Source of the DNA: Geotalea uraniireducens Rf4
GTDB taxonomy: Bacteria; Desulfobacterota; Desulfuromonadia; Geobacterales; Geobacteraceae
Reading direction: 5' to 3'
Assembly (NCBI RefSeq): GCF_000016745.1
Contig: NC_009483.1
Coordinates: 2,340,001 to 2,372,000, forward strand
DNA length: 32,000 nt
Shown: positions 11,063 to 26,745 of the stretch, piece after piece
Layout: each line of letters begins with the position of its first letter
Position numbering within the stretch: the stretch's first letter is position 1
Program-made: the position numbers and the translations under genes
Notes under the pieces: generated by a model
What the model saw: the letters and a program-made list of their open reading frames with translations, nothing else
Database searches by the model: none
Told to the model about the DNA's origin: nothing

Positions 11063-12331
11063 ATGAGTTTTCAGGTGATTATGCTGAAGAAAATATTAGT
11101 TGTATTCGGTTTTGGATTATCGCTGTTTCTTCTCTGGTTTGCCGTGAGCAATTACCGGGCAGCCGGTCCCATTGCCGAAGAAAATCTCCGTGGCCTCGCA
11201 GTATCCTTGGCTGCAGCGATCGAGAATACTACCAGACAAGACCCTTCATTCAAGTCCTTGACCGGGTTTCACCCTTCCGACGTTGCTTTTTTTGCCATAA
11301 TCGATCGGAAGGGAACCATTCGCTTCCATTCGAACTCCGACCTCATCGGGAGTTCCACGGACAATCGCGATGTTCTGGCGGTCATGCAGAACAAAGTAAT
11401 ATCCGAATCGAGAGTGGTGCTTGGTACCGGAGAAAAAGCGTACCTATTCGACATTCCTCTCGATATTCACGGGGAGGTGTTTGCCCTTCGGCTTACGCTG
11501 CACACTTATAAGGCCGATGCGGTGGTGAGACGGGCTCGTCTAAATTTTGCCTTGCTCCTGTCGCTCTTGGCCGTCGGGTGGTTTCTGGCCGTTATCATCT
11601 ACCGGTTTGCCAAACGGGAAGAGCGGCACCAGATGGAGATGGCCCATCGGGAGAGCCTGGCCAGGCTCGGAGAAATGGGCGCCATGCTCGCCCATGAGAT
11701 ACGCAATCCCCTGGCGGGGATAAAAGGGTATGCCCAGGTTATCGAGAAAAGACCGGCTGAAGAACGAAACCGCAAGTTTGCTCAAAGCATCGTCAACGAG
11801 GTCCTGCGGCTGGAAAACCTGGTGAACGAACTTCTTGCATATGTGAGAAACGAAAGTACATCCATGAACCTGATCGATAGCGGTGGACTCATTTCCCATG
11901 CCGTTTCTCTGATTCGTCAGGAGGCTGAGCAGCTTCATGTGGCGGTCAGCATCGAATGTCCAGAAAATCTGCCCGTCCTAGGAAACTCGGACCGACTGGT
12001 TCAGGTACTGCTCAATCTTTTTAAAAACGCTCTCCAGGCAATGCCCGACGGCGGCAGTTTGCGCATTTCAGCCGGTATCGCCGGTTCAGCCGTTAGCATA
12101 ACCGTTGCCGATTCGGGAGCCGGCATCAGCCAGGAGGACATGGCGAGGATCTTCGAGCCGTTTTTCACTACCAAAGCACGGGGAACCGGTCTGGGTCTTG
12201 CCCTCTGCAAAAAGATAATCGGCGAGCACAACGGGACGATCAGCGTATCGAGCAGAGTCGGTCAAGGAACTTCAGTATCGATTACCCTTCCTTTGCAAAA
12301 AGGAAATATACCTGGCGGGAGCAGCTTATGA
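11063..12331 (+). CDS. Membrane sensor histidine kinase (two TM segments flanking a periplasmic domain, HisKA, HATPase_c), partner of the downstream sigma-54 activator
   Basis: 422 aa. TM1 [18 protein letters not shown] and TM2 [18 protein letters not shown]-box AHEIRNPL. G-boxes DSGAGI and GTGLGLALC. Its stop overlaps the next start (ATGA). An alternative start is ATG 11081. Confidence 0.88.
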
Positions 12332-13671
12332 CGGGACGTATACTTATTGTTGAAGACGATGAGACATTCAGGAGCTTTTTACGGACGATCCTGGAGGACG
12401 TCGGGCATGAGGTTCAGGAAGCCGGCGACGGCCTCAAGGGATTGCGTTTGCTGCGACGGGAAAACTTCGACCTGGTGATTTCAGACCTGAAGATGCCGGG
12501 TAAAAGCGGGCTTGAGCTGTTTCGCGAAACGAGACAGGACTCAAGCCCCCCGCAGTTTATCTTTCTGACGGCATTCGGGAAGGTGGAAGAGGCCGTTTCC
12601 GCAATCAAGGAAGGAGCCGTGGATTTCCTGACCAAGCCCCTTTCTGATCCCGACACCCTGCTTGTCCTGGTTGATAAGGTAATTGCATCGCAGGGCCGAG
12701 CACGAGACTATCTATCTCTCAAGGAAGTTGAGGCTGCGGGCCTGCCGCCGGAGGATTTGATTTTCGCCGGGGCGGCCATGAGAGACATACGGAAGATGGT
12801 CCATGAAGTTGCCGCGACCACTGCCAGCGTTCTCATTTACGGTGAGAGCGGCACCGGCAAGGAGTTGGTTGCCCGAACCATTCATTTGCTGAGTCCCAGA
12901 CGTACGGCTGCTTTCGTTCCCTTGAACTGTGCGGCGATTCCTGAGAATCTACTGGAAAGCGAACTTTTTGGTCATGAAAAGGGCGCCTTTACAGGCGCCA
13001 TTCAGGCGCGGCACGGTAAATTCGAGCTGGCCAGGGGAGGGACGATTTTTCTGGATGAAATCGGCGAGATGCCGCTTTCCTTGCAGGTCAAGTTGTTGAG
13101 GGTCTTGCAGGAGCGGGTTTTTGAGCGAGTGGGTGGCGCCAGGGAAATCAAGGCTGATGTGCGGGTTATCGCAGCCACGAACCGCAATCTTCAGGAAGAG
13201 GTGTCGGAACGGAGGTTTCGTGAGGACCTTTACTACCGTCTGAACGTTTTTCCGCTCAGTCTGCCGCCATTGCGGGAGCGTAACGATGCCGTTCATCTGC
13301 TGGCCGATTACTTTCTTCGCCGTTTCAGCCGACAGGTCGGCAAGAAACTCACGGGGATTGACGATGGGGCCTTTAATGCGATGAAAAGTTATGACTGGCC
13401 GGGCAATATTCGCGAGTTGCAGAACGTCATGGAGCGTGCGGTTATCCTGGCGCATGATGTGGTCAGATATAATAATCTGCCGGATCAGATGCTTGCAAAG
13501 TCCGCGTCAACTGCCCGCGGGGGCAAGGATGTCCTGAAATCCGTGGAACGGGAGATGATCATCAAAGCCTTGAACAAGCATGGCGGAAATCGCCGCCTGG
13601 CTGCCGAGGAGCTGGGATTCTCACGCAGGACCTTGCAGTACAAGCTGAAAGAGTTTGGCTTGCTGGATTAA
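12328..13671 (+). CDS. Sigma-54-dependent response regulator (REC, AAA+ and Fis-type HTH; NtrC family)
   Basis: 447 aa. Receiver domain ILIVEDDE...DLVISDLKMPG. Walker A GESGTGKE. The sigma-54 contact loop GAFTGA is present. C-terminal HTH NRRLAAEELGFSRRTLQYKLKEFGL. Confidence 0.93.
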   Translation: MTGRILIVEDDETFRSFLRTILEDVGHEVQEAGDGLKGLRLLRRENFDLVISDLKMPGKSGLELFRETRQDSSPPQFIFLTAFGKVEEAVSAIKEGAVDFLTKPLSDPDTLLVLVDKVIASQGRARDYLSLKEVEAAGLPPEDLIFAGAAMRDIRKMVHEVAATTASVLIYGESGTGKELVARTIHLLSPRRTAAFVPLNCAAIPENLLESELFGHEKGAFTGAIQARHGKFELARGGTIFLDEIGEMPLSLQVKLLRVLQERVFERVGGAREIKADVRVIAATNRNLQEEVSERRFREDLYYRLNVFPLSLPPLRERNDAVHLLADYFLRRFSRQVGKKLTGIDDGAFNAMKSYDWPGNIRELQNVMERAVILAHDVVRYNNLPDQMLAKSASTARGGKDVLKSVEREMIIKALNKHGGNRRLAAEELGFSRRTLQYKLKEFGLLD

Positions 13672-14389: not shown

Positions 14390-14444
14390 CATTGATCGTA
14401 TCACTCTGGTTATCGTCTAAATGCGTTACAATGGAGAGGAGAGC

Positions 14445-15326
14445 GTGAAACATAACCGTTGTTCGGAAAAGTTTATAGCCCTGCTGGTGGTCATGACCGT
14501 TTTGCTGATACCGTCCCGGCTTTTTGCTGAAGAGCCATCATACTCCACCAGCCTCGGTTTTGAGTTCACTACCGGCAAATACGGGACAGGAATTAAAACC
14601 GACGCCATCTTCATGCCGTTCACCGTTGCCGTTTATCCGACGGAGCGGCTCGATTTTTCGCTGCAGATACCCTATGTCTACCAGAGCAGCAGCGCAGTAG
14701 TTGCGGGCGAATTCAGGGGGATGCAGCCGCAATCCATGGGGATGGGCTCGCAGTCGGTCTTGGCCGCCATGGGTAGCATGGGCAGCGGCACCGGCGGGCC
14801 GGGCCCGAGAACTACGGCATCGGCGGCCAATGTCGATAAATCCCAGAACGGACTCGGCGACATCACATTCAGGGCAGGCTACATCGTGGTTCCAGAGGGA
14901 GATTATCTGCCGGGCATCCGTCCCAACTTCTTTGTTAAATTTCCCACCGCCGACAAGAACAAATTTCTCGGGACCGGCGCCTTTGACGGAGGTCTTGCCG
15001 TGGAACTTTTCAAGTGGTTTGGTTATTGGCTCACCATTGGGGAGTTGGGGTATGCAGTCCAGGGCAAATCGTCGGTGCTGGCCGTTAAAAATTACCTCTA
15101 TTACAACGCCGGGGTCGGTTACCAGATCGGCGAACGGCTGCGGCCGATGCTCATGCTCAAAGGGAGCACCCCTCCCGTGGAGGGCGCTTCAGCCCAGCTG
15201 GAGGCGCGATTGAGGGTCAAGTACCAGATTACCGAACATACCGGCATAGACGGTTACGTCTCAAAGGGGATCAATACGTCCAGTCCCGATTACGGCACCG
15301 GTCTGGCGTTCTGTCTCGATTTCTGA
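14445..15326 (+). CDS. Outer-membrane beta-barrel protein (MetA-pathway/phenol-degradation-like transporter family)
   Basis: GTG at 14445 follows GGAGAGGAG directly and is in frame with the ORF-track start at 14421. Signal peptide ends ...SRLFA-EEP. The NGLGDITFRAGY motif is typical of this barrel family. Alternating hydrophobic strands. C-terminal aromatic residue (..FCLDF). Confidence 0.72.
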   Translation: MKHNRCSEKFIALLVVMTVLLIPSRLFAEEPSYSTSLGFEFTTGKYGTGIKTDAIFMPFTVAVYPTERLDFSLQIPYVYQSSSAVVAGEFRGMQPQSMGMGSQSVLAAMGSMGSGTGGPGPRTTASAANVDKSQNGLGDITFRAGYIVVPEGDYLPGIRPNFFVKFPTADKNKFLGTGAFDGGLAVELFKWFGYWLTIGELGYAVQGKSSVLAVKNYLYYNAGVGYQIGERLRPMLMLKGSTPPVEGASAQLEARLRVKYQITEHTGIDGYVSKGINTSSPDYGTGLAFCLDF

Positions 15327-15563: not shown

Positions 15564-16454
15564 ATGAACAGGAAAATTATCGCAGCAGCAGTCGTGACAG
15601 CAGCATTGACAGGAGCACTTGCGGGATGCGGAGGAAGCGGCACGACCTCTGCGCCAGTATCCGTGAGCGGGACCGTGGCCGACGGTTATCTGGTGGGGGC
15701 CGAGGTCTTCCTCGACAAAAACAATAACTACCAGTGGGACGAAGGTGAGCCGAAGACCATGACCGGGCCTGGAGGAACGTACACGCTGACCATGACGGCG
15801 GGCGACATGGGAAAATACCCGGTCGTGGTCCGTGCCATAGCCGGAAGCACGGTGGATGAAGACACCGGACAGACGGTGCCGAACGATTACGTCATGTCCG
15901 CGCCTCCGGCTGCCGGCGGATTTGTCAGTCCCATGTCGACCCTGGTCAGGGAAAAAATGGAATCGAATCCGGGGATGACCATGGCGCAGGCGATGATACA
16001 GTTGAGGAACCAGCTCAATCTCCCGGCAGGCATGGACATGCTTGCCGACTATGTGGCGGGCTCCGGCTACGGCCCATACCAGGGTCAGTACCAGTCCATG
16101 CACCAGGTTGCCCGGCAGATGGCTGGGCTGATGGCGGACCAGTCCTCGCTCGTCTTGAACGGCAGCGTGGTCAACAAGGGGCGTTATCGGGGGATGATGG
16201 GACAGCTCAACCAGAACCTGCCGCAGATCGCAAACAACGCCTTTCAGGGGATGGGTATGGAAAGCACCTTCATGACCGACATGCGGAGCCGGATGCGGAC
16301 GATGCTTGAATCCATGTCGGCGGTCAACGGTTTCGGCAACTACTCGGCAATGTTCCGTAACATGACCAGTCACCGGTTTTTCTGGAATTACTCAGGCGGT
16401 CGCATGCAACCGGGCAGCGGCATGATGGGCGGTGGTACGAGAGGCATGATGTAA
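15564..16454 (+). CDS. Methionine-rich lipoprotein of unknown function
   Basis: Lipobox LAG-C. GGAG RBS. By my count 31 Met in 296 aa, concentrated in the C-terminal 180 aa. It ends GGRMQPGSGMMGGGTRGMM. Confidence 0.75.
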   Translation: MNRKIIAAAVVTAALTGALAGCGGSGTTSAPVSVSGTVADGYLVGAEVFLDKNNNYQWDEGEPKTMTGPGGTYTLTMTAGDMGKYPVVVRAIAGSTVDEDTGQTVPNDYVMSAPPAAGGFVSPMSTLVREKMESNPGMTMAQAMIQLRNQLNLPAGMDMLADYVAGSGYGPYQGQYQSMHQVARQMAGLMADQSSLVLNGSVVNKGRYRGMMGQLNQNLPQIANNAFQGMGMESTFMTDMRSRMRTMLESMSAVNGFGNYSAMFRNMTSHRFFWNYSGGRMQPGSGMMGGGTRGMM

Positions 16455-16529
16455 CCCGACTCTGCCGCAGCAGGAATGTGTTGATGCGAAAATGTGACGA
16501 TCCTGTTGCTGGCCCGCACAAAAATTGTA

Positions 16530-16559
16530 TTGACATCAGTCGCCGATTTTAGCTATGCT
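16530..16559 (+). promoter_or_regulatory. Sigma-70-like promoter (TTGACA, 18-nt spacer, TATGCT) for the riboswitch-controlled transcript
   Basis: Read directly from the sequence. It lies about 50 nt upstream of the first aptamer. Confidence 0.5.
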
Positions 16560-16607
16560 TCGTCACACGCACGAGCAATCAACTCGTTGCACAATCAGCA
16601 ACAGCTT

Positions 16608-16690
16608 GATAGACGATAATACTTAACCATCCGCGAGGGTGGGGCGGAAAGCCTAAAGGGTCTCCATGAGATAGCCGGGTTGCCGAAATA
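16608..16690 (+). promoter_or_regulatory. GEMM-I class cyclic-dinucleotide riboswitch aptamer, copy 1
   Basis: CGAUAAUACUUAACC, then hairpin CCAUCC-GCGA-GGGUGG with a GNRA loop, then GGCGGAAAGCC, then GGGUCUC...AUAGCCGGGUUGCCGAA. This matches the conserved core of c-di-GMP-I/GEMM-I as I remember it (ACGCAAAGCC ... GGGUUACCGA in Vc2). Confidence 0.8.
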
Positions 16691-16720
16691 TCATACGATA
16701 TTCGGCGACCCGGCTTTTTT
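16674..16720 (+). terminator. Intrinsic terminator forming the expression platform of riboswitch copy 1
   Basis: GCCGGGTTGCCGAAATATC / GATATTCGGCGACCCGGC stem followed by TTTTTT. The 5' arm is the 3' strand of the aptamer, so the two folds are mutually exclusive. Confidence 0.8.
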
Positions 16721-16833
16721 GTGGTCAAAATTGGATAAAGGGGGGTGATAAAGCCGTAAGATGTGACGCGCCTGCGAGGGCGTAAGGTTATGTCGAGTTG
16801 TGAATTACTGTTACTCGGTAATAGTCCTTTAGT

Positions 16834-16916
16834 GGTACACGATAATACTAAACCATCCGTGAGGGTGGGGCGGAAAGCCTATAGGGTCTCAAGTCAGACA
16901 GCCGGGTTGCCGAAAT
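16834..16916 (+). promoter_or_regulatory. GEMM-I class cyclic-dinucleotide riboswitch aptamer, copy 2
   Basis: CGAUAAUACUAAACC, then CCAUCC-GUGA-GGGUGG, then GGCGGAAAGCC, then GGGUCUC...ACAGCCGGGUUGCCGAA. It starts 226 nt after copy 1 and is nearly identical in all conserved positions. Confidence 0.8.
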
Positions 16917-16945
16917 ATCACGAGATATTCGGCAACCCGGTTTTT
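16901..16945 (+). terminator. Intrinsic terminator forming the expression platform of riboswitch copy 2
   Basis: GCCGGGTTGCCGAAATATC / GATATTCGGCAACCCGG stem with one bulged A, followed by TTTTT. It shares its 5' arm with the aptamer. Confidence 0.8.
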
Positions 16946-17087
16946 ATTTGCCCATTTACCGGATGTGGCCGAAAAAAGTAACTCGTGAACAAGGTTCGGA
17001 TCACCCCATGACGGGCAGTGGGATTGAGCCGGAAGGACAACAAAAATTGCTGTGCCGTCTGGCGCAGCAAGGAGCAAAGGAGAAACA

Positions 17088-19139
17088 ATGAGAGAACAGA
17101 TTAAAAGAACGTTCGCCGGCATCACCGTACTCTGTCTTGTTGCCGTCGGTCTTATGCTGACCGGCTGCGGCAGCAGCGGCGGAGGTCTTTCATCCCAGGT
17201 CGTGAGTGGCGTTGCTGCGGTCGGCGCTCCACTTGCCGGGCAGGTAAACCTTAAGGACGCCTCTAACCCTCCACAGGAAAAGTCGACCGTTATCGGTAAT
17301 GACGGTACGTTTGCCTTCGATGTCACGGGCATGAAAGGCCCGTTCATCCTGCAGGCGTCAGGGCGCGCCAACGGAACGAATTACGCGCTTCATTCCTTTG
17401 CCGGCGGAACGGGCACAGCCAACGTCAACCCGCTCTCAAATGCGGCGGTAGCCAGTGCTGCAGGGGTTGACGACCCGTCACAGGTCTTCGCGAATCCCGA
17501 CCCGGTCACGCTCCAGAAAATCGAGTCCAATCTCCAGACAGCTGTCGCCACTATCCTGTCCAAGCTCCACCCGCTCCTGAAGCAGTACAGCGCAGACAAC
17601 TCCGATCCGATCAAGGGGCACTACACCGTTGACCACACCGGTCTCGACGGCATGCTGGACAATGTGAAAATGACCCTATCCAACGGGGTTCTTACGATAG
17701 TGAATGCGAAAACCGGCGCAGTCATTTTCAGCGGCAAGATCTCCGACATCAATAACTGGAATTTTTCGGACGACGATAATAACATTCCCGCCCCGCCTGC
17801 CGTGCCCGCCGCTCCAGCCGGCTTGACCGCCACCGGCGCTGCCGGCCAGATGACCCTTTCCTGGAACGCCGTCAGCAACGCGACCTCGTACAATGTCTAC
17901 TACTCGACCACTGGCGGTGTCTCTGCCGCCAATGGGACAAAGATCGCCGGGGCCACCAGTCCTTATGTCCAGAGCGGCCTTACCGCAGGAACCACCTATT
18001 ACTACATCGTTACGGCAGTGAACAGCGCCGGCGAAAGCGCTGCCTCGGCCCAGGTTTCGGCGACCACCAATGCGACGCCGACACCGACGCCGACTCTCCC
18101 TGCTGCACCGACCGGAGTAATGGCCACAGGCGGCACCAACCAGGTGACCCTCTCCTGGAGCGCCGTCAGCAATGCTGCCTCGTACAACATTTACTGGTCG
18201 ACCAAGACAGGCGTCACGACGAGCAACGGGACAAAGATCAGCGGTGCCATGAGTCCTGCGGTTCAGGCGGGGCTTGCTGCCGGCACGACCTATTACTACA
18301 TCGTTACGGCAGTGAACAGCGCAGGCGAGAGCACGCCTTCCGTCCAGGTTGCGGCGACCACCGTCACTCCGACTCCCGCTCCGACCGTGCCGGCTGCCCC
18401 GTCCGGCGTGACCGCCACCGGCGGCGCCAAGCAGGTGACGCTGTCCTGGCCGGCAGTATCCGGCGCAACCTCCTATAATGTCTACTGGTCTACCGCTTCC
18501 GGCGTAACGACCGCGAACGGCACGAGAATCGCCGGGGCCACCAGCCCTTATGTTCATACCGGTCTTTCCGCAGGGACCAGCTACTATTACATAGTCACGG
18601 CTGTAAACGGCGCGGGCGAGAGTGCTCCATCAACTCAGGCGACCGCAACCACCAATGCCCCACTTCCGGCCGTTCCTGCTGCACCGACCGGTGTGACCGC
18701 CACAGGCGGCGCCAATCAGGTGTCTCTCTCCTGGTCGGCGGTCTCCGGCGCGACATCGTATAACGTTTACTGGTCTACGACTTCAGGGGTTACGACCGCT
18801 TCCGGGACAAAAATCGCCGGGGCCACCAGTCCCTACGTCCAGACCGGGCTTGCCGCCGGCACCGCCTACTACTACATCGTAACGGCGGTGAACAGCGCCG
18901 GTGAGAGCGCCGCGTCGGCAAAGACCACAGCGACTACCGCCGCCCCTGCAATCGACGGTGCAGCGCTTTATTCACAGTACTGCGCCGGGTGTCACGGAGC
19001 CCTGGCATCGTCCAACAAGAGGAAAACGACCGCTTCCAAGATCCAGTCGGGGATCAGCGGCAATGTCGGCGGAATGGGATATCTTTCCTCCCTCTCGGCG
19101 GCACAAATTCAGGCCATTGCTACGGCTTTGAATTTCTAG
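17088..19139 (+). CDS. Lipoprotein with an N-terminal beta-rich region, four tandem fibronectin-type-III repeats and a C-terminal monoheme cytochrome c domain
   Basis: ATG at 17088 follows AAGGAG.AAAGGAGAA; the track start at 17052 is less likely. Lipobox LTG-C. Four repeats carry the LSW.AVS.A.SYN.Y.S ... Y.V.GL.AGT.YYY.VTAVN.AGES pattern. CAGCH heme motif at 18981-18995, with a downstream GGMGYL candidate Met ligand. Confidence 0.85.
   Translation: MREQIKRTFAGITVLCLVAVGLMLTGCGSSGGGLSSQVVSGVAAVGAPLAGQVNLKDASNPPQEKSTVIGNDGTFAFDVTGMKGPFILQASGRANGTNYALHSFAGGTGTANVNPLSNAAVASAAGVDDPSQVFANPDPVTLQKIESNLQTAVATILSKLHPLLKQYSADNSDPIKGHYTVDHTGLDGMLDNVKMTLSNGVLTIVNAKTGAVIFSGKISDINNWNFSDDDNNIPAPPAVPAAPAGLTATGAAGQMTLSWNAVSNATSYNVYYSTTGGVSAANGTKIAGATSPYVQSGLTAGTTYYYIVTAVNSAGESAASAQVSATTNATPTPTPTLPAAPTGVMATGGTNQVTLSWSAVSNAASYNIYWSTKTGVTTSNGTKISGAMSPAVQAGLAAGTTYYYIVTAVNSAGESTPSVQVAATTVTPTPAPTVPAAPSGVTATGGAKQVTLSWPAVSGATSYNVYWSTASGVTTANGTRIAGATSPYVHTGLSAGTSYYYIVTAVNGAGESAPSTQATATTNAPLPAVPAAPTGVTATGGANQVSLSWSAVSGATSYNVYWSTTSGVTTASGTKIAGATSPYVQTGLAAGTAYYYIVTAVNSAGESAASAKTTATTAAPAIDGAALYSQYCAGCHGALASSNKRKTTASKIQSGISGNVGGMGYLSSLSAAQIQAIATALNF
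17806..18940 (+). repeat. Four tandem FN3-coding repeats, periods 294, 291 and 285 bp
   Basis: The YYY codon triplets start at 17997, 18291, 18582 and 18867. Repeats 1 and 2 share an identical 32-mer, TATTACTACATCGTTACGGCAGTGAACAGCGC. Confidence 0.9.
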
Positions 19140-23727: not shown

Positions 23728-23802
23728 TGGTGGGCGATGCTGGGATCGAACCAGCGACTTCTACCGTGTGAAGGTAGCACTCTCCCGCTGAGTTAATCGC
23801 CC
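23728..23802 (-). tRNA. tRNA-Val (anticodon CAC), CCA encoded
   Basis: Hand-folded cloverleaf. Acceptor stem GGGCGAT/ATCGCCC. D stem ACTC/GAGT. Anticodon stem CTACC/GGTAG with loop TTCACAC. T stem GCTGG/CCAGC with loop TTCGATC. 75 nt. Confidence 0.95.
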
Positions 23803-24019: not shown

Positions 24020-24456
24020 ATGCCGGGGCGTTTAATACTAATAAAACACAGCGTTGTCCGGTTTGGTTTTTGCTTACGTCCCGTAGGGACAGAATACTGG
24101 TAGCCGGGGAATTCATTCCCCGGTCATCCAGGCGAAATATCATCACGTCACGTACGTGACGTGGGGAAATATAGCATCTCATCCGGGGGATGAATCCCCC
24201 GGCTACATTCGAACGCCCCTAATGGGGCTTAACAACCTTGATGCACAAACCAAACCGGACAACGCTGAATAAAACATGATGAGTGGATGCCGTTGTCACC
24301 TTGAACCGGCCTGAAGCGATGAACGATCTTCTGGATCTGAAAAACGCCTGCCTCATGGAGCGGGACGCCTTTGCCCTCTTGCTTTACCACCGAAGACCAG
24401 AAAGAAGGGATGATCGCGTTCGTGGAGAACGGCCGGCACAGTTCAAAGGCGGATAA
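24020..24456 (+). pseudogene. Relic of an enoyl-CoA hydratase/crotonase-family gene. Only the N- and C-terminal ends remain, with three frameshifts and a MITE insertion.
   Basis: After an AGGAGA RBS the ATG opens MPGRLILIKH. After the MITE, a second frame reads VDAVVTLNRPEAMN...ERDAFALL. A third frame reads FTTEDQKEGMIAFVE. The original frame then ends RPAQFKGG-stop at 24454-24456. LNRPE and F.TEDQKEGM.AF.EKR.P.F.G are the classic crotonase N- and C-terminal signatures. About 200 internal codons are missing. Confidence 0.7.
24049..24267. mobile_element. 219-bp palindromic MITE with 21-bp perfect terminal inverted repeats and a 9-bp target-site duplication
   Basis: TIR CAGCGTTGTCCGGTTTGGTTT at 24049-24069, with its exact reverse complement at 24247-24267. 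It is flanked by direct repeats AATAAAACA at 24040-24048 and 24268-24276. The interior is a chain of small hairpins (GTCCC/GGGAC, CCGGGGA/TCCCCGG, CCGGGGGA/TCCCCCGG, GCCCC/GGGGC) around a central palindrome CACGTCACGTACGTGACGTG. There is no ORF. Confidence 0.85.
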
Positions 24457-24578: not shown

Positions 24579-24627
24579 GCGAACTGCCGGACGACTCACG
24601 ACTTACTACTCACGATTGAGGATTTCG

Positions 24628-25158
24628 ATGAAGCTGGAACATGGTTATATTCAGGTTTACACGGGTAATTGCAAGGGGAAGACCACCGCAGCTCTTGGCC
24701 TGGCTCTCCGCGCTGCAGGCCGCGAGATGATGGTCTGTATGGTCCAGTTTATGAAAGGCGGTGGACCTTATGGTGAACATCTTGCCGCAGAAAGGCTCGC
24801 CCCCTACCTGACCATCATCCAGACCGGTAGGGAAGGGTGGGTCGATAAGGACAACCCTCATCCGGAAGATGTCCGGCTGGCCCGCGAAGCCCTGGTGACC
24901 GCAAAAGAGGCCCTGACCGGCGGTCGTTACGATATCGTCATCCTCGACGAAATAAACGGTGCGGTTTCTTTCGGTCTTATTGGTGTGGACGACGTTCTTG
25001 AGCTTATGAGATCGAAGCCGGCTCATGTCGAACTGGTGCTGACCGGCAGGAACGCCGATGAAAAAATTATCGAGGCAGCCGACCTGGTTACGGAGATGCG
25101 GGAGATCAAGCATTACTACAAGGCCGGCGTGCCGGCAAGAATCGGCATTGAAAAGTGA
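24628..25158 (+). CDS. cobO: Cob(I)yrinic acid a,c-diamide / cob(I)alamin adenosyltransferase (CobO/BtuR type)
   Basis: GYIQVYTGNGKGKTTAALG-type P-loop (here GYIQVYTGNCKGKTTAALG), VQFMKGG, DIVILDEIN. ATG at 24628 lies 5 nt after GAGGA; the track TTG at 24616 is less likely. Confidence 0.85.
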   Translation: MKLEHGYIQVYTGNCKGKTTAALGLALRAAGREMMVCMVQFMKGGGPYGEHLAAERLAPYLTIIQTGREGWVDKDNPHPEDVRLAREALVTAKEALTGGRYDIVILDEINGAVSFGLIGVDDVLELMRSKPAHVELVLTGRNADEKIIEAADLVTEMREIKHYYKAGVPARIGIEK

Positions 25159-25238: not shown

Positions 25239-25643
25239 ATGGCTGAGAGAAAACTGAGGGTACTTGTTGGAAAACCGGGCCTTGACGGTCACGACAGGGG
25301 GGCGAAGATCATTGCCCGCGCTTTCAGGGATGCGGGTTTCGAGGTGATTTACACCGGCCTTCATCAAACCCCGGAGCAGATCGTCTCTGCCGCAATTCAG
25401 GAAGACGTCGACTGCGTCGCACTTTCCATCCTATCCGGCGCGCACAATACCCTCCTCCCCCAGGTTTGCGAGCTGTTGAAAGAGAAAAAGGCGGATGATA
25501 TCCTCGTCTTCGGCGGTGGAGTCATCCCTGATGACGACATACCGGGACTGAAGGCCTCCGGGATTCGAGAAGTATTCACTCCAGGCACGTCAACCGAAGA
25601 TATTGTCGCCTGGGTGCGCAACAATGTGAAGCCGCGCGCATAA
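25239..25643 (+). CDS. B12-binding small subunit/domain of an acyl-CoA mutase (methylmalonyl- or isobutyryl-CoA mutase type)
   Basis: 134 aa. The DxHxxG cobalamin-ligand motif occurs within [22 protein letters not shown] and GGVIP are also present. Strong RBS AAAGGAG. Confidence 0.85.
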
Positions 25644-25794: not shown

Positions 25795-26745
25795 ATGTCT
25801 TTAGCTGAAAAGATACTTGATGGCGATATCCGCTCAGCGGCGAGGCTGATGCGGGATATAGACGACGGTCTCAGAAGTGCCGTCGAGGAATTGAAAACCC
25901 TTTATCCCCATACGGGCAAAGCGTTTATCATCGGTTTGACCGGTCCTCCCGGTGCAGGGAAGTCGACCCTCGTCGACCAGCTCACAGCAGCCTATCGCAA
26001 AAGGAATAAGAGGGTGGGGGTTGTGGCGATTGACCCGAGCAGTCCCTTTACCGGCGGCGCCATTCTCGGCGACCGGATCCGCATGAACCGTCATGCAGAT
26101 GACGAAGGGGTGTTTATTCGCAGCCTGGCAACTCGCGGTTATCTGGGCGGCCTGTCCCGTTCCACCGGCGACGTGGTCAATGTCATGGATGCCATGGGGA
26201 TGGATGTCATCATCATCGAGACGGTCGGGGTCGGCCAGGACGAGATCGACATCGTCCGCATGGCCCATACCACTGTAGTTGTCATGGTGCCGGGGCTGGG
26301 GGACGATATTCAGGCCATCAAGGCCGGTATCCTCGAGATCGGCGATGTTTTCGTGGTGAACAAGGCTGATCGTGAAGGGGCTGACCGGACAGTGCGCGAG
26401 TTAGCCAACATGCTTGATATGAAGCCGAGCAAGAGCGGCGAATGGCAGGCGAAGGTGCTGAAGACTGAAGCACAGCGCAATGTCGGCATTGAAGAGATGG
26501 TAGAGGAAATCGAATCACACAGAAGCTATCTCTTTTCTTCCGGCGCAATCTCGCATCTGCTGGAGGAAAAAAATGCCAACCTGTTCATGGAAATCCTGAA
26601 GGATCGTCTCTTTGCCGAGGTCTTCGGCCATATCAAGATGAACGGCAGGTTCCGCGAGATAGTGGACGGGATGATGACCCGGCAAAAGGACCCGTACAGC
26701 GCAGTCGACGAGATTCTGGCGGAGAGGTTCGGCAAGGGGGCATGA
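25795..26745 (+). CDS. meaB: MeaB/ArgK-type G-protein chaperone of B12-dependent mutases
   Basis: 316 aa. P-loop GLTGPPGAGKSTL. VAIDPSSPFTGGAILGDRIRM. IIETVGVGQ. NKAD G4 motif. Confidence 0.88.
   Translation: MSLAEKILDGDIRSAARLMRDIDDGLRSAVEELKTLYPHTGKAFIIGLTGPPGAGKSTLVDQLTAAYRKRNKRVGVVAIDPSSPFTGGAILGDRIRMNRHADDEGVFIRSLATRGYLGGLSRSTGDVVNVMDAMGMDVIIIETVGVGQDEIDIVRMAHTTVVVMVPGLGDDIQAIKAGILEIGDVFVVNKADREGADRTVRELANMLDMKPSKSGEWQAKVLKTEAQRNVGIEEMVEEIESHRSYLFSSGAISHLLEEKNANLFMEILKDRLFAEVFGHIKMNGRFREIVDGMMTRQKDPYSAVDEILAERFGKGA

Follow-up and report, generated by a model that had tools for sequence, protein, structure and literature searches.

Tandem GEMM-I aptamers of the A20 (GEMM-Ib) type in the leader of a gene encoding an FN3/monoheme cytochrome lipoprotein of Geotalea uraniireducens Rf4

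What does a 633-nt intergenic leader that holds two near-copies of one RNA element sense, and what could be gained by sensing it twice? This question is raised by a locus located in a 32,000-nt stretch of the Geotalea uraniireducens Rf4 genome (contig NC_009483.1, positions 2,340,001 to 2,372,000; hereafter the window), a genome sequenced in 2007. The leader carries two GEMM-I units in series and precedes a gene (17088-19139) encoding a lipoprotein with fibronectin type III (FN3) domains and a single c-type heme. A first-pass annotation, made from the letters of the window, had described two near-identical aptamer-plus-terminator units behind a sigma-70-like promoter and had assigned them, with a "possibly", to the subtype selective for cGAMP (3',3'-cyclic GMP-AMP). 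We consider it quite probable that the leader comprises two independent transcriptional ON riboswitches in series, which belong to the GEMM-I A20 variant (GEMM-Ib) and sense cGAMP; the identity of the ligand, the promoter, and the way in which expression follows the dose are the parts of this reading that we infer. The tandem GEMM-Ib arrangement in Geobacteraceae is already known and is re-identified here, being detectable with the standard Rfam model.

Two aptamers with overlapping terminators

The Rfam scan of the whole window (64 kb against 4227 families, with curated gathering scores applied) gave exactly three matches above gathering, namely one transfer RNA (tRNA) and two aptamers of the RF01051 (c-di-GMP-I) family, both of which reach the gathering score of 35 bits (Table 1). 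The two units are direct repeats whose starts lie 226/227 nt apart (identity of 91% in a block of 58 nt and of 85% in one of 55 nt), as had been noticed earlier. GEMM-I RNAs have been described as a first hairpin, with stems of 2 bp and 6 bp, an internal loop of 3 nt, and a tetraloop of the GNRA type, followed by an AAA linker and a second hairpin (PMC1950547). Both window aptamers fit this description, with C-G/U-G pairs, a 6-bp stem that ends in a GCGA or GUGA tetraloop, GGAAAGCC as linker, and a formed P3. The core motifs named in the first-pass annotation, i.e., GNRA loops, GGCGGAAAGCC, AGCCGGGUUGCCGAA, and AAACC, were found in unit 2; in unit 1 the first three stood and AAACC did not, as this unit reads CUUAACC, not CUAAACC, with a U in the P2 internal loop at the position of a conserved A. 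Since U or C recurs at this position in aptamers of homologous loci (L008_a, L013_a, L001_a, and L001_b; see below), we regard the U as tolerated variation. A full-text literature search for the motif GGCGGAAAGCC returned no riboswitch paper.

Table 1. Features of the tandem riboswitch locus, in window coordinates
Feature	Position	Strand	Description
Sigma-70-like promoter (putative)	16530-16559	+	TTGACA (16530-16535), 18-nt spacer, TATGCT (16554-16559); 10/12 consensus positions
Aptamer 1, GEMM-I A20 (GEMM-Ib) type	16611-16687	+	RF01051 40.3 bits, E 9.9e-5; GCGA tetraloop
Terminator 1	16673-16720	+	Hairpin 16673-16715, 19 pairs, one bulge; U6 tract 16715-16720
Aptamer 2, GEMM-I A20 (GEMM-Ib) type	16837-16914	+	RF01051 47.6 bits, E 1.7e-6; GUGA tetraloop
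Terminator 2	16900-16949	+	Hairpin 16900-16942, 18 pairs; then U5AU3 (UUUUUAUUU) to 16949
Leader hairpin	17047-17070	+	Perfect 10 bp, UUGCUGUGCC-GUCU-GGCGCAGCAA; by folding
FN3/monoheme cytochrome lipoprotein gene	17088-19139	+	683 aa; ABQ26212.1 / WP_011938915.1

Each aptamer shares its 3' strand with an intrinsic terminator. In aptamer 1, the P3 3' strand, C92 (numbering of Vibrio cholerae Vc2), and the P1 3' strand all fall within the 5' arm of terminator 1 (16673-16691), and the 5' arm of terminator 2 is formed in the same manner by the 3' part of aptamer 2 (P3 3' strand, ligand-pairing C, and P1 3' strand). The folding energy is -33 to -35 kcal/mol for terminator 1 and -31 kcal/mol for terminator 2, with z about -8 against shuffled sequences in both cases, and 0 of 200 shuffles fold as well as either one; the 19 and 18 pairs agree with the 17-19 bp stems reported in the first-pass annotation. 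A simple terminator scanner missed both terminators, presumably because its search rules are unfit for long bulged stems, while folding shows both. When the aptamer pairs were enforced, the best fold was less stable than the terminator fold by 32.8 kcal/mol in unit 1 and by 28.9 kcal/mol in unit 2. With terminator folds 29-33 kcal/mol stabler than the aptamer folds, termination (OFF) would be the default state, and because the 5' arm of each terminator is the aptamer's own 3' strand, each unit is predicted to act as a ligand-dependent ON switch, the geometry that had been proposed before. Terminators overlapping the second GEMM hairpin have been taken to imply activation by the ligand (PMC1950547). 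The leader thus pairs the 5' regulatory position with an expression platform, and it shows the layout of same-class tandems, with two aptamers in one untranslated region, each followed by its own terminator, and neither a gene nor a promoter between them. The isolated aptamer folds are not stabler than shuffled sequence (z -0.7). A weak aptamer z-score of this kind is normal for ligand-dependent folds. An extended P1 pairing GAUA (16615-16618) with UAUC (16689-16692) was tried and rejected, as it conflicts with the P1 of RF03167 (C4-G76, G5-C75), and the sole apparent compensatory change in its favor (in L009) is equally explained by covariation inside the terminator.

In the proposed mechanism, transcription would start near 16560 from the sigma-70-type promoter, and the nascent aptamer would have a short interval in which ligand could bind at the three-helix junction (A20, A47, and C92). 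Bound ligand would hold the 3' strands of P3 and P1 in the aptamer and permit read-through; without it, the same nucleotides would pair with the downstream arm to give a far stabler intrinsic terminator, and the transcript would end. Because RNA polymerase would arrive at the gene only after clearing two checkpoints, expression is expected to approximate the product of the two read-through probabilities, and this series arrangement may reduce leak and make the response to the messenger of the Hypr GGDEF cyclase GacA steeper and more switch-like. No GGDEF gene was found within the window.

Upstream of the first aptamer, a TTGAC-type -35 sequence is located at a distance of 55-81 nt in seven homologous loci (L001, L003, L007, L008, L009, L013, and L014), with a match to the full -35/-10 pattern in 5/7 and with L008 and L013 judged by eye. 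As this element is kept in the homologous loci examined, the promoter call, which also figured in the first-pass annotation, appears credible; the only other promoter-like match (9/12) falls inside aptamer 1. A sigma-54 promoter was looked for because a gene encoding a sigma-54 activator lies upstream, and the candidates seen by eye near 16500 and 17040 were rejected on account of a spacing that breaks the GG-N10-GC rule. No credible open reading frame (ORF) was found in the leader (16455-17087): a 72-aa ORF (16763-16981) merely reads through aptamer 2, and a small ORF between the units was rejected, since the Shine-Dalgarno-like runs that follow the first terminator in several loci come without a conserved reading frame. 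The hairpin at 17047-17070 stands downstream of terminator 2 and shortly before the ribosome-binding site GGAG (17079-17082), is not followed by a U-tract, and leaves the Shine-Dalgarno sequence uncovered; it could be an mRNA-stabilizing or processing element.

Ligand pocket and its conservation in homologous loci

The ligand-contacting positions were read from covariance-model alignments, in which the equivalent of Vc2 G20 is RF01051 model position 11, immediately 5' of the 2-bp stem, A47 is the A after the closing pair, and C92 is the first C of GCCGAA. At positions 20, 47, and 92, aptamer 1 carries A16621, A16648, and C16683, and aptamer 2 carries A16847, A16874, and C16910, which bears out the A that the first-pass annotation had placed at the G20 position in both copies. 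The combination A20/A47/C92 is the signature of cGAMP-sensing GEMM-Ib (PMC6140456, PMC5888326, PMC9481103), and with A at positions 20 and 47 and C92 kept, both window pockets carry this signature. Compared with Vc2 and the canonical RF01051, the window aptamers share the fold, A47, and C92, and differ in having A instead of G20, bottom pairs of the tetraloop hairpin that are C-G and U-G where the canonical ones are G-C and C-G, a GYRA tetraloop, and a P3 bulge in place of the 11-nt receptor (PMC1950547). The clan competitor RF03167 (the "GGC" variant) gave 49.3 and 41.7 bits with permissive thresholds. It was rejected as the identity of the units despite scoring marginally higher than RF01051, because both values lie below its gathering score of 59 and its alignment shows A, not G, at the two diagnostic positions, 20 and 47; one possibility is that the higher score stems from the shared overall scaffold.

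Gs1761 (pgcA) has an architecture composed of P1 (G1-G8/C76-G84), J1/2 (A9-A14), P2 (C15-G40), J2/3 (A41), P3 (A42-U73), and J1/3 (G74-C75); in its structure with cGAMP the contacts are G8, A9, A11, A12, A14, C15, G40, A41, A42, and C75 (PMC6274999). Vc2 G20, A47, and C92 correspond to Gs1761 A14, A41, and C75, respectively. With positions assigned manually through the published contacts and helix limits, not by direct sequence alignment, the contact bases are identical at 10/10 positions in both window aptamers, and the junction lengths are those of Gs1761 (J1/2 of 6 nt, P2 of 26 nt, J2/3 of 1 nt, and GC as J1/3). No printed aptamer sequence was found in the main text of PMC9262584 or in the supplements of PMC6456294. 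Gs1761 is ~1000-fold selective for cGAMP (PMC6274999; PMC6456294). Together with the A20/A47/C92 pocket and a host from the Geobacteraceae, these contacts lend strong circumstantial support to cGAMP as the probable ligand of both aptamers, so that the cautious proposal of cGAMP selectivity in the first-pass annotation appears to have all the support that sequence by itself can give.

Relatives of the regulated protein were collected by scanning one genome per species, which gave 79 loci, and at least eight other genomes were found to have GEMM-I units in front of homologous genes. Among near-full homologues from Geobacteraceae, RF01051 doublets precede five genes (L001, L003, L008, L013, and L014), a triplet precedes one (L007), and a single match was found in two further cases (L009, and L011 at a contig end). 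In the L007 triplet (2250-2830), the third aptamer (2754-2830) has no obvious terminator. Upstream of homologues binned to other lineages (L002, L004-L006, L010, L012, L015, and L016), no RF01051 match was found; four of these loci, in metagenome-assembled genomes labelled Burkholderiales or Betaproteobacteria (L002, L012, L015, and L016), encode full or near full-length homologues (56-61% identity) without GEMM-I, a pattern that either mis-binning or horizontal transfer of the gene without its leader would explain. Searching with a regular expression for the core revealed further units before genes sharing the heme domain alone, including doublets and triplets (L076, L078, and L079). Units in these three loci are ~139 nt apart, and the arrays of L078 and L079 occupy about 2120-2480.

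In an alignment of 16 units from 9 loci, all units carry A47 and C92, 14 have A at position 20, and the other two have G there; A20 was found in 28/30 related aptamer cores. The two G20 units, from L001 and L009, are otherwise identical in scaffold. The L001 leader has a G20 unit first and an A20 unit second (2469-2544 and 2662-2738), and in L009, a single G20 unit (2764-2840) lies directly behind the promoter. All 16 aligned units have an overlapping terminator, with compensatory changes between the arms (UUG/CAA, AUG/CAU, UUA/UAA, and UCG/CGA), and 97% of the cells in the aptamer helices are paired. The aptamers win_a and win_b of the window are 89% identical to each other, win_a and L001_b are 93% identical, and L008_a and L013_a are 96% identical; as within-locus copies are usually less alike than between-genome copies, the duplication is older than these species and has been maintained. 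L003 forms an exception, its own two copies being 97% alike.

Messenger, number of sensors, and known tandems

Several observations weigh against assigning two cGAMP-sensing switches to this leader. Selectivity for cGAMP requires A20 but is not guaranteed by it; besides cGAMP, Vc2 G20A and several A20 aptamers from nature also accept cyclic di-GMP (c-di-GMP), which can be bound via protonated adenine (PMC6140456). Covariation in the aptamer helices is thin, with 2 compensatory pairs, and 14-16 of 500 shuffles reach the observed values; we attribute the small number of such pairs to the close relationship of the sequences. Unit 1 is the weaker match of the two (40.3 bits) and carries U at a position where A is conserved in the model, and the putative promoter is, at this locus, a consensus match alone.

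The first of these points underlies the alternative that the architecture is the same, with one or both aptamers bispecific or preferring c-di-GMP, so that the leader's output would follow c-di-GMP, or the two messengers summed, and not cGAMP specifically. Natural bispecific GEMM-Ib aptamers speak for it, as does the finding that cGAMP binding was shown for 12-13 of 17 GEMM-I RNAs of Geobacter sulfurreducens (PMC8835794), and the G20 units of L001 and L009 indicate that one scaffold can serve either ligand. We nevertheless consider this alternative rather unlikely, given that the ten contact bases of the highly selective Gs1761 recur in both window aptamers, that A20 predominates among the related cores, and that deleting the cGAMP synthase affects every G. 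sulfurreducens gene located behind a GEMM-Ib RNA (PMC6456294). An extension of the two-switch reading, which we regard as improbable, holds that the units are non-redundant and differ in affinity or in cGAMP/c-di-GMP selectivity, in which case such leaders would constitute an evolvable two-input gate integrating both messengers. The P2-loop U and the stronger terminator of unit 1 bear on this idea, as does the A/G toggling of position 20 within the gene family. The L001 leader, with G20 preceding A20, might form a naturally occurring AND gate for c-di-GMP and cGAMP; a gate for this pair is absent from the natural riboswitch logic gates in Table 2 of a 2022 survey (PMC9481103).

It is very unlikely that the leader contains a single working sensor and that the other unit, most likely unit 1, is a decaying duplicate acting as a constitutive partial terminator or being inert. 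The lower Rfam score of unit 1 and its P2-loop U would suit such decay; however, this unit scores above gathering, retains every pocket nucleotide, and overlaps its terminator perfectly. Its U is also common to the first-position copies of L008 and L013, whose aptamers are 96% identical, which argues for purifying selection on both unit positions. In addition, RNA-seq of the GSU2885 tandem of G. sulfurreducens shows that RNA is lost step by step at its two units in a manner that depends on GacA (PMC6456294). That the repeats are a duplicated terminator or repeat element resembling GEMM-I by chance, for which the unremarkable folds of the isolated aptamers might be cited, is effectively refuted by two independent matches over a curated threshold in the window-wide scan and by the same units upstream of homologous genes in the other genomes.

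Two cGAMP-sensing ON switches in series would fit what has been reported for this RNA class. One third of deltaproteobacterial GEMM RNAs are tandem (Weinberg 2007, PMC1950547), and G. sulfurreducens has 17 GEMM-I RNAs, several of them tandem, with downstream transcripts that fall in a gacA deletion, as determined by RNA-seq (Hallberg 2019, PMC6456294). Downstream RNA is lost in this deletion for the tandem GEMM-Ib RNAs upstream of GSU0183, GSU1945, and GSU2885 (PMC6456294), the value for GSU1945 changing from 359 to 16 (PMC6456294 supplementary file 6). GSU1945 is annotated as an FN3 domain protein (PMC10599522), and its leader (GSUR3010/GSUR3009) resembles that of the window in having two annotated GEMM-I aptamers whose starts lie ~250 nt apart before the gene of an FN3-repeat surface protein. 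The expression of GSU1945 depends on the cGAMP synthase GacA (PMC6456294; PMC10599522); GSU1945 belongs to another species and is longer (about 1047 aa compared to 683). Its sister tandems in G. sulfurreducens are GSU0183 and GSU2885 (omcAHG operon). G. sulfurreducens was not listed among the best 120 protein-search matches to the regulated protein, a search swamped by FN3-repeat proteins.

Gs1761 and Gm0970 (pilM) share with the window the aptamer layout, the A20/A47/C92 pocket, the ten contacts, and the overlapping-terminator ON geometry; they are single units, whereas the window has two in series. The pilM GEMM-Ib riboswitch of Geobacter metallireducens turns transcription ON, its aptamer and terminator exclude each other, and its kinetics have been worked out (PMC9262584). 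The 2022 survey lists 347 c-di-GMP-I doublets and 12 triplets, classed as pseudo-cooperative, in counts that pool A20 and G20 members (PMC9481103). Such tandems, including a Bacillus thuringiensis triplet, resemble the window in having same-class aptamers with their own terminators, and a more digital response has been predicted for them (PMC9481103). The window leader adds one predicted member to the cGAMP regulon of a uranium-reducing member of the Geobacteraceae and matters little beyond correct annotation; the doublets, the triplet, the single unit, and the A/G toggle before homologous genes could serve studies of tandem evolution or specificity flips.

The regulated protein and its surroundings

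The product of 17088-19139 is identical in sequence to the Rf4 record ABQ26212.1 / WP_011938915.1, whose public name is "fibronectin type III domain-containing protein" alone. Its ATG start codon lies five nt after GGAG, and the gene is monocistronic, as the next gene is on the opposite strand. In the protein, a lipobox (LTGC, Cys27) is followed by ~210 aa of N-terminal sequence to which no family matched, by four FN3 domains that PT-rich linkers join, and, at the C-terminus, by a monoheme domain with the motif CAGCH (C632, C635, H636, and M663), in agreement with the lipoprotein with a c-type heme described in the first-pass annotation. PgcA is the best-known protein regulated by GEMM-Ib. Compared with the last 65 residues of the window protein, PgcA heme domain I (8QJ6) gave an E-value of 9.7e-18 with 34/59 residues identical (58%), and heme domain II (8QJG) gave 7.8e-16; the CxxCH motif (CAGCH) and the distal Met (GGMG) align with the PgcA domain structures, which are known from crystallography (PMC11520253). 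The Pfam Cytochrome_CBB3 profile reached 24.6 bits, below its threshold of 27. Residues 619-683 (18942-19136) appear to form an unannotated PgcA-type His/Met monoheme domain, which links the regulated FN3 protein to extracellular electron transfer. By carrying this domain, the protein also adds to the likeness between the window locus and Gs1761 and Gm0970.

Upstream of the leader, 15564-16454 encodes a 296-aa lipoprotein with a LAGCGG lipobox and a Met/Gly-rich C-terminal tail (…GSGMMGGGTRGMM), for which neither a Pfam nor an NCBIfam match was found and which shows no similarity to the N-terminal domain of the regulated protein (E 6.3). It is preceded by a gene for a MetA-like outer-membrane channel (14421-15326) and, further upstream, by a histidine kinase and sigma-54 response regulator pair (11063-13671). 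In a comparison with protein collections, the sigma-54 response regulator and ParB of the window matched ABQ26208.1 and ABQ26214.1 exactly; the outer-membrane transporter-like protein also has an exact counterpart in the public collection, the Rf4 record of the same cluster (ABQ26210.1) being 8 residues shorter.

Elsewhere in the window, no cobalamin riboswitch was detected in the region of the B12-related genes cobO-like (24616-25158), B12-binding (25239-25643), and MeaB (25795-26745). Upstream of these genes, ~250 nt past a tRNA gene (23731-23802, - strand) in the + direction, lies a nested imperfect palindrome of ~220 nt (24049-24267) centered on CACGTCACGTACGTGACGTG. Its outer arms are 25 nt long with 96% complementarity, and its inner arms form two hairpins that match Acido-Lenti-1 on opposite strands with 36.3 and 32.8 bits, just under the Rfam threshold of 37.

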